Shown here piece after piece: positions 1 through 633 of a stretch of DNA of 633 bases (the first letter of the stretch is position 1; the number at the start of each line of letters is the position of its first letter). Below the pieces are notes generated by a model that did not search any database, had not been told where the DNA came from, and saw nothing but the letters and a program-made list of their open reading frames with translations. Made by a program: the position numbers and the translations under genes. Origin of the DNA: Escherichia coli. GTDB taxonomy: Bacteria > Pseudomonadota > Gammaproteobacteria > Enterobacterales > Enterobacteriaceae. The DNA is taken from NCBI RefSeq assembly GCF_003334305.1, contig NZ_QOWS01000073.1. The stretch is one strand, 5' to 3'.

Positions 1-633
1 TCATCAGGGACATCGCAAACAATATGAAGACGGATTTCTTCTCTGCCGTGACTCTTTTCACTGATTGCGTAACTGTCATGCTCTGGATTATTTAATTCTT
101 TCAGCGGAAATTTTTCCTCAAAGGCTTTATTTAGCCGCCCCTGGTTTCCTTTTACCGCGAATAAATAATCACCTCCCTGTTTTTGTATCTTCTCTGCAAT
201 ATCTTTCTGGCAACCCATCGCATCAGTTGTGATGATTTTTCCTTTAATATCCAGCATGTTAAGAAGTTCTGGGATAGCTGTAATCTCATTAGATTTCTCA
301 TCCGTCTTGATCTGTCCGATGACCAGACTGTGCATTGTTGAGAACGCACTAATGACATGAATCGCTCCCCTGCGGCGACTCTTGTCATAAGAGTGCCGGA
401 GCGTTTTTCCATCAATTGCAATGACGTCTTTATCATCTGAAGAATGGCAGTCACGCATCCAGTTAATAAAGCACTCATGAAATTTTGCAGGACTGATACA
501 GGATACAACTCTGGCAATAGTATCGTGAACAGGAATACCATTTTCAAAATCACCATATTGCTTCAAGAAATCGAGATGTGTTTCCCCGAAATCCTCTATA
601 TCTTCCCAACTTTCTGCACCAGAAATAACGGCA
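1..633 (-). CDS. ISAs1-family transposase (H-repeat-associated protein, ISEc1-like), internal fragment, partial at both ends; in-frame codons occupy 632..3
   Basis: Seen in sequence: manual translation of the reverse complement in this frame gives 210 consecutive sense codons with no stop across the whole window. Recognition: motifs such as [50 protein letters not shown] and [33 protein letters not shown] match, from memory, the H-repeat / ISAs1 transposase family (E. coli YhhI/YdcC/YbfD-type proteins, roughly 378 aa). The ORF track missed it only because no start or stop falls inside the window. No database search was run, so paralog identity and percent identity are unknown. Confidence 0.9.
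1..633 (-). mobile_element. Internal portion of an ISAs1-family insertion sequence (H-repeat element); terminal inverted repeats and target-site duplication not in window
   Basis: Inferred from the transposase CDS that fills the window. ISAs1-family elements are single-ORF insertion sequences of roughly 1.2-1.4 kb (established knowledge), so the element boundaries must lie beyond both window edges. GC of about 41% by hand count suits a mobile element, but the host genome GC is unknown. Confidence 0.8.
222..413 (-). other. Region containing two candidate catalytic aspartates of the DDE motif: Asp codon at 411..413 (in VIAIDGKT) and Asp codon at 222..224 (in IITTDAMG)
   Basis: Seen in sequence: both are GAT codons on the minus strand, 63 residues apart, each following a hydrophobic beta-strand-like stretch as is typical of the first two acidic residues of DDE/RNase-H-fold transposases. 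Assigning them as the catalytic residues is inference from general DDE architecture, not from an alignment. The catalytic Glu would lie downstream of the gene, beyond position 1. Confidence 0.4.

Follow-up and report, generated by a model that had tools for sequence, protein, structure and literature searches.

The 633 nucleotides of Escherichia coli DNA analysed here (the window, by which we mean the whole stretch at its full length) are part of the transposase gene of ISEc1, the H-repeat of E. coli. The reading of the data that we favour, with a probability of roughly 0.93 and on the strength of sequence comparison, is that this transposase fragment most probably derives from the copy of ISEc1 at the nfrB-cusS Rhs locus, or else from the copy at RhsB, that the element has moved in the past by DDE transposition, and that its Rhs-linked copies are probably old, have exchanged sequence by gene conversion and appear to be under selection.

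The window and the transposase it encodes

Frame 2 of the minus strand is open across the entire window (positions 1 to 633, 210 codons) and encodes residues 36-245 of a 378-residue transposase, with partial codons at both ends, which corresponds to codons 35-246 of the 378-codon gene and to positions 249-881 of the 1,291 bp element. The list of open reading frames made by program omits frames that run off the ends and so contained only short spurious ORFs for this window; a 134-codon ORF in another minus-strand frame overlaps the real transposase gene, is without support and was rejected. The 210-residue translation matches the NCBIfam model NF033564, "ISAs1 family transposase", with an E value of 3.1e-84 and a score of 282.8 bits, well above the equivalog cut-off of 70, and a DDE_Tnp_1_assoc domain is followed by a DDE_Tnp_1 domain both in the fragment and in a full-length protein identical to it. 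Within the window the C-terminal two thirds of the N-terminal DDE_Tnp_1_assoc domain (PF13808) are encoded at 456..632 on the minus strand (fragment residues 1-59, model positions 30-88 of 88, E=3.9e-20) and the first part of the DDE catalytic domain (PF01609, DDE_Tnp_1) at 75..434 on the same strand (fragment residues 67-186, model positions 3-128 of 200, E=3.5e-18). In the full-length protein Pfam places PF13808 at residues 8-94 and PF01609 at residues 102-343, the latter covering model positions 3-200.

Searches with megablast returned 100% identical copies in many complete E. coli genomes, with the transposase annotated as "ISAs1-like element ISEc1 family transposase", and it is this identity to annotated ISEc1 copies that assigns the window to the 1,291 bp reference element of E. 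coli. The preliminary description, which was made from the letters of the sequence, had taken the window to be an H-repeat of the ISAs1 family and was right to do so, as the NF033564 match, the Pfam domains and the identity to ISEc1 all agree and go far beyond what chance could produce.

By reference to the motifs of IS4-type DDE transposases, the candidate catalytic residues would be D109 in AIDGK (nt 411-413, minus strand), D172 in TTDAMG (nt 222-224, minus strand) and a glutamate, E306 in HVENK, which lies outside the window; a sequence search returned no solved structural relative of the transposase by which the catalytic residues could be fixed. A permissive Rfam scan of the window produced a match to a eukaryotic scaRNA of 22 bits, set against a gathering score of 60, which is a chance match, and nothing else that was credible. 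The window itself is plain transposase coding sequence, in keeping with the earlier expectation that any interesting biology would be found in the flanks, and as it includes neither the ends of the IS nor any flanking DNA its context has to be read from identical copies elsewhere.

Structure and composition of ISEc1

When full copies at four loci are compared in pairs, the region of homology is exactly 1,291 bp long, which we take to be the length of the classical "H-repeat" of Rhs elements. The ends of ISEc1 are imperfect terminal inverted repeats, CAGGGaAAGATcA, and in the full copies that contain the window they read CAGGGAAAGATCA... on the left and CAGGGCAAGATTA... on the right (as the reverse complement), both lying outside the window. 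The founder of the ISAs1 family is ISAs1 of Aeromonas salmonicida. Like the members of this family as defined by NF033564, ISEc1 is ~1.3 kb long, encodes one DDE transposase in which a DDE_Tnp_1_assoc domain is combined with a DDE_Tnp_1 domain, and ends in short, imperfect inverted repeats; a target duplication of ~10 bp, another trait of the family, is seen at the island copy described below. An active IS would not usually look like most copies of ISEc1 in E. coli, which are fixed at Rhs loci and carry no target duplications.

The ISEc1/H-repeat (H-rpt) of K-12 and the element to which the window belongs are one and the same, with the same termini, the same 378-residue transposase, the same placement at the distal end of Rhs loci and the same orientation relative to rhs. 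The sequence of the window is, however, not a K-12 allele and corresponds instead to the allele that typifies the Rhs locus at nfrB-cusS, a locus missing from K-12. Two papers that were retrieved as matches to "ISEc1" (PMC10711316 and PMC7482066) concern other elements whose names merely begin with ISEc1 and were set aside.

The GC content of the window is 41.4% over its 633 bases, about 10 points below that of the E. coli flanks, whilst that of the full IS is 40.0%, compared with 48.7% and 52.1% for the nfrB-cusS flanks and 49-52% for three 30-kb regions of K-12. The composition of ISEc1 is atypical for its E. coli host, and to this extent the earlier proposal of a foreign origin, based on a GC content of about 41%, stands. 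It does not stand as a claim of recent import: since 98% of complete E. coli genomes carry ISEc1, and do so at fixed sites, "foreign" can only refer to an ancient acquisition, and the element is an old resident of E. coli.

Distribution of ISEc1 in complete E. coli genomes

Matches to the window were found by megablast in 5,343 of 5,426 complete E. coli genomes, at 24,099 places and with a median of 5 per genome, many of them 100% identical, and the window alone therefore cannot be assigned to one locus. The occupancy of individual loci was estimated with junction queries, each consisting of 200 bp of the IS right end and 200 bp of flank, and a match in the same 5,426 genomes was counted when it extended over 80% or more of the query. 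The junction on the ybgA side (RhsC) was present in 3,188 genomes, that on the nfrB side in 2,480, that on the pptA side (RhsE) in 2,365 and that on the yhhJ side (RhsB) in 1,826. Overall the junction searches imply roughly 16,000-17,000 IS right ends; by a back-of-envelope calculation over the chosen junctions, which is no census, the four Rhs loci including the tandem copies at RhsC hold around three quarters of these, and rough arithmetic puts about a fifth to a quarter outside all the junctions tried.

All the copies in K-12 are at the distal end of RhsB, RhsC or RhsE and are oriented like rhs, with identities to the window of 99.05% for yhhI (RhsB), 98.1% for both ydcC (RhsE) and ybfL (RhsC) and 95.3% for ybfD (RhsC). 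Identity is 97.2% for copies on the pptA side of the RhsE locus in other strains (L025-L029), and likewise 97.2% for a copy between rpmE and metJ (L047), a further Rhs locus carrying ISEc1 that was found by sampling via protein variants. It is 96.2-96.4% for copies in a non-Rhs setting, the asn-tRNA island of LF82-type strains (L019-L024), and 87% for a remnant in the O-antigen cluster of O157:H7 Sakai.

The K-12 loci also show some structure of their own. At RhsC (L004:16446-18927; ybfQ, ybfL, ybfD) there is a tandem ISEc1 array made up of a partial, a full and an internally deleted copy, and at RhsE a second and far more divergent H-repeat relative, yncI (L003:15587-16640, ~67% identical), lies just upstream of ydcC.

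Identical copies at the nfrB-cusS Rhs locus

Thirteen exact matches to the window, taken from the start of a list in arbitrary order, were inspected in their genomic context. Twelve were located at nfrB-cusS and one at the end of RhsB (yhhI of strain 14EC047), although several of the sampled strains are related, as they share transposase and toxin accessions, and the 12:1 ratio is therefore no estimate for the population. All 13, as well as all the K-12 copies, follow rhs and its orphan tips and occupy the distal end of an Rhs locus, which confirms the association with Rhs elements that had been expected from general knowledge of H-repeats. Furthermore, one exact protein variant was found at nfrB-cusS in 10 out of 10 further contexts, where the window is either 100% or 99.84% identical.

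The nfrB-cusS locus has been catalogued before, as Rhs locus 4 of Jackson et al. 2009 (PMC2935791) and as RHS 3 in the E. coli W genome paper, where it is missing from K-12 and B (PMC3032704). The order of genes is cusS, vgrG, a DcrB-related gene, a PAAR-Rhs toxin gene, small presumed immunity genes or orphan tips, ISEc1 and nfrB, so that what separates cusS from nfrB is an accessory vgrG / DcrB-like / PAAR-Rhs toxin block, present in about 46% of complete E. coli genomes. In the 12 copies at this locus 269 bp separate the IS from the start codon of nfrB, a gene with the same orientation as that of the transposase. The intergenic region between nfrB and cusS in K-12 is only 149 bp and is without the block, and alignment of K-12 with a filled locus, the comparison with an IS-free orthologous locus that the preliminary description had called for, places the whole block within this 149-bp spacer with 23 bp replaced; the IS sits 116 bp inside the nfrB-side boundary of the block. 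The same alignment with the K-12 intergenic region reveals no interrupted host gene at nfrB-cusS, and gene disruption, which had been put forward as one of the things that H-repeats can do, did not occur here.

The toxin gene at nfrB-cusS is often annotated as a "zincin-like metallopeptidase toxin" (Pfam Tox-MPTase4) and is frequently frameshifted or truncated, with breakage by an internal stop, a frameshift or an N-terminal truncation seen at L005:10515-15377, L008:10515-17662 and L001:16515-17849. The toxin tips vary between strains and include Tox-MPTase4, Tox-REase-3 accompanied by a SUKH-3 immunity-type gene, and one tip without a domain match, and in one case (L008) two Rhs units or tips are arranged in series. 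The product of nfrB is the phage N4 adsorption factor, a c-di-GMP-activated exopolysaccharide glycosyltransferase, and the gene is a pseudogene in 5 of the 12 inspected nfrB-cusS loci, through a frameshift in L001, L039, L041 and L045 and an internal stop in L046; the four frameshifted cases share transposase and truncated toxin accessions and may therefore represent a single lineage.

As the exact window occurs at two or more loci it is impossible to name its own flanks with certainty. Going by the sample, it would very probably have come from the copy at the nfrB-proximal edge of the toxin block at nfrB-cusS, and otherwise from the RhsB-linked yhhI.

A transposition footprint outside the Rhs loci

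The asn-tRNA island of LF82-type strains provides a context for ISEc1 that is not linked to Rhs. Here the copy has 96% identity to the window, and 19 of the 5,426 complete genomes contain its junction. This copy is flanked on both sides by ATTGGAACCC(C), a 10/11-bp target duplication (L019:5847-5856 and 7148-7158), and in an IS-free allele of the island, from strain RMDEC465, ATTGGAACCC(C) is present exactly once (empty site L054:6241-6251). Together the island copy and the empty site are a clean footprint of a past transposition with a target duplication of 10 or 11 bp. No target duplication was found at any of the Rhs-linked copies examined, including those that are identical to the window. 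According to the E. coli W paper, transposition of the H-repeat has not been observed (PMC3032704); the island footprint documents, directly in the sequence, a past transposition of an element that the literature describes as never seen moving.

The island has another feature, which is a pair of adjacent genes for hypothetical proteins of 818 and 1,300 residues (L030:6256-12618; E. coli LF82, NC_011993.1 2059986-2066348; the same genes are found in L019-L024). Neither protein has a Pfam match on record or an NCBIfam or PADLOC match. The pair is situated in an asn-tRNA integrase island close to a UvrD-helicase / ATP-dependent nuclease pair, a MazE/PemK pair and ISEc1; the annotations of the helicase and nuclease could presumably fit a phage-defence pair such as Gabija, and the 818/1,300-residue gene pair could be an undescribed defence or other system.

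Probable exchange between copies and a possible role in the turnover of Rhs cassettes

A table of variable sites for the RhsB copy of strain 14EC047 (L006:8591-9881, compared with L001 and L002) shows it to be nfrB-type over at least positions 253-913 and RhsB-type at both ends. This mosaic indicates probable gene conversion between copies that are about 3 Mb apart, and it is because the 14EC047 copy holds an nfrB-type central tract that the exact window is found at two loci. Nine comparisons between copies of the transposase gene have synonymous divergence that can be measured and give dN/dS values of 0.02-0.19, and dS is 0 in one near-identical pair.

At nfrB-cusS the right flank of the IS is constant whereas the DNA that adjoins its precisely preserved left end varies between strains, with at least four left flanks, namely the MPTase4 tip, a second tip, REase-3/SUKH-3 and a bare Rhs core fragment. 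The bare-core allele has lost vgrG and most of rhs. There are two places where the Rhs genes are gone and the IS has been kept in position, one at nfrB-cusS (L032:3980-4856) and one at the RhsE site (L027:5613-5856); in the former a 175-bp piece from within the Rhs core directly adjoins the left end of the IS, so that the deletion ended exactly at the IS terminus.

The account that would best explain these observations is as follows. ISEc1 moves, or has moved in the past, by DDE transposition with duplication of 10-11 bp of the target, as the one non-Rhs copy shows. The Rhs-linked copies would be old insertions, now fixed in position, that have lost their target duplications, their original flanks having presumably been replaced by deletion or recombination. 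These copies would exchange sequence and be homogenised by gene conversion, and their transposase reading frames appear to be kept under purifying selection.

An unlikely but more active role can be envisaged, in which the Rhs-linked copies of ISEc1 take part in the turnover of Rhs toxin/immunity cassettes and are not passive passengers. Two routes, both of low probability, could be proposed: the transposase might make adjacent deletions that end exactly at the left terminus of the IS, or the IS might provide the homology on the right, and the Rhs core that on the left, by which new tips are swapped in. The constant right flank and the varied left flanks at nfrB-cusS, the missing target duplications at Rhs-linked copies, the mosaic structure of IS copies, purifying selection on the transposase frame and the two loci with Rhs-free alleles that retain the IS (L032 and L027) are all consistent with such a role. 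All of these patterns can, however, also be expected where any old repeat is the site of ordinary homologous recombination and deletion. Furthermore RhsA and RhsD of K-12 presumably diversify without an H-repeat, which counts against ISEc1 having a role in the turnover of tips, and Jackson et al. (PMC2935791) explain tip turnover without mention of the H-repeat or of any transposase. More doubtful again is the fullest form of the idea, in which the ISEc1 cap would be a working part of each Rhs locus with its transposase kept by selection, trimming or replacement of cassettes would take place at its left end, and its body would be the downstream homology arm for exchange between strains and loci.

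Two joints between loci might have been taken as products of such exchange. In two draft assemblies the yncH side of the RhsE locus is joined to yafV-ivy-fadE via a full and a partial IS (4857-6557 in both L034 and L035), and in one metagenome contig an nfrB-type MPTase4 cassette is joined to pptA via the IS (L051:4857-5720). Neither joint is found in any of the 5,426 complete genomes, and as they have no counterpart there they are probable assembly chimeras across the 1.3-kb repeat, which weakens the case for cassette turnover. It also serves as a caution that context is unreliable when it is taken from short-read contigs that cross the ISEc1 repeat.

Other possible sources of the window

With regard to the origin of the window, the nfrB-cusS copy is preferred to the RhsB-linked yhhI. 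It would seem improbable that yhhI was the source, and if it were, the element and its biology would be the same and the neighbours would be rhsB, yhhH and yrhC on one side and yhhJ on the other. The yhhI of strain 14EC047 does contain a 100% identical window, and yhhI of K-12 comes within 99.05% of it; set against this, RhsB accounts for only one of the 13 exact matches sampled, that one copy looks like a product of conversion with its nfrB-type central tract, and the yhhJ junction is present in fewer genomes than the nfrB junction (1,826 compared with 2,480).

The association of H-repeats with O-antigen clusters, the other setting suggested for the window, is well founded for the family. In the O-antigen cluster of O157:H7 Sakai (galF to gnd) a 935 bp feature annotated as "ISEc1 Family: ISAs1 partial" (L053:19372-20306, equivalent to NC_002695.2 2774371-2775305) is located between manB, encoding phosphomannomutase, and the last O-unit gene before gnd. 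Its GC content is 39.4% and that of the surrounding cluster is 36.4%. A remnant of an H-repeat has also been described in the Salmonella group D2 cluster, where it lies at the recombination junction (PMC3715488), and an ISAs1 transposase gene has been described within the O-antigen cluster of an EPEC strain (PMC9705854). The remnants in E. coli O157 and Salmonella group D2 belong to the same IS family as the element of the window, but that of O157 shares 87% identity with the window and 85% with the full IS, is shortened to 935 bp and lies in a different genomic setting, and at this level of identity it fails to describe the window's copy. Among the copies inspected, no exact or near-exact copy of the window was found between galF and gnd. 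The polysaccharide link is real for the family and, judged from these identities, appears not to apply to the copy from which the window came.

It is thus very remote that the window came from an H-repeat in or beside a surface-polysaccharide (O-antigen) cluster, where it would mark past recombination between clusters, since, for all that the Sakai, Salmonella D2 and EPEC cases are genuine, the O157 remnant is so divergent, no polysaccharide genes adjoin either the 13 exact copies or the 35 places that were sampled via eight protein-variant look-ups, and nfrB, although it encodes an exopolysaccharide glycosyltransferase, is the fixed core neighbour at nfrB-cusS.

Significance

Both ISEc1/H-repeat and the nfrB-cusS Rhs locus are already known, and descriptions of the H-repeat and of its links to Rhs elements and O-antigen clusters go back to the 1990s. 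With the element so long described and the locus catalogued, the assignment of the window carries little weight as a discovery. What has been added is small and consists of the insertion footprint with its empty site, the missing target duplications at Rhs-linked copies and the gene conversion that probably takes place between loci, all of which could feed into a study of the turnover of Rhs tips. For annotation the exact sequence is of use, as it most likely flags an Rhs toxin locus that is linked to type VI secretion, varies between strains and is missing from K-12, and which carries vgrG, a DcrB-like protein, a PAAR-Rhs protein with a zincin-like metallopeptidase or other toxin tip, and orphan tips.
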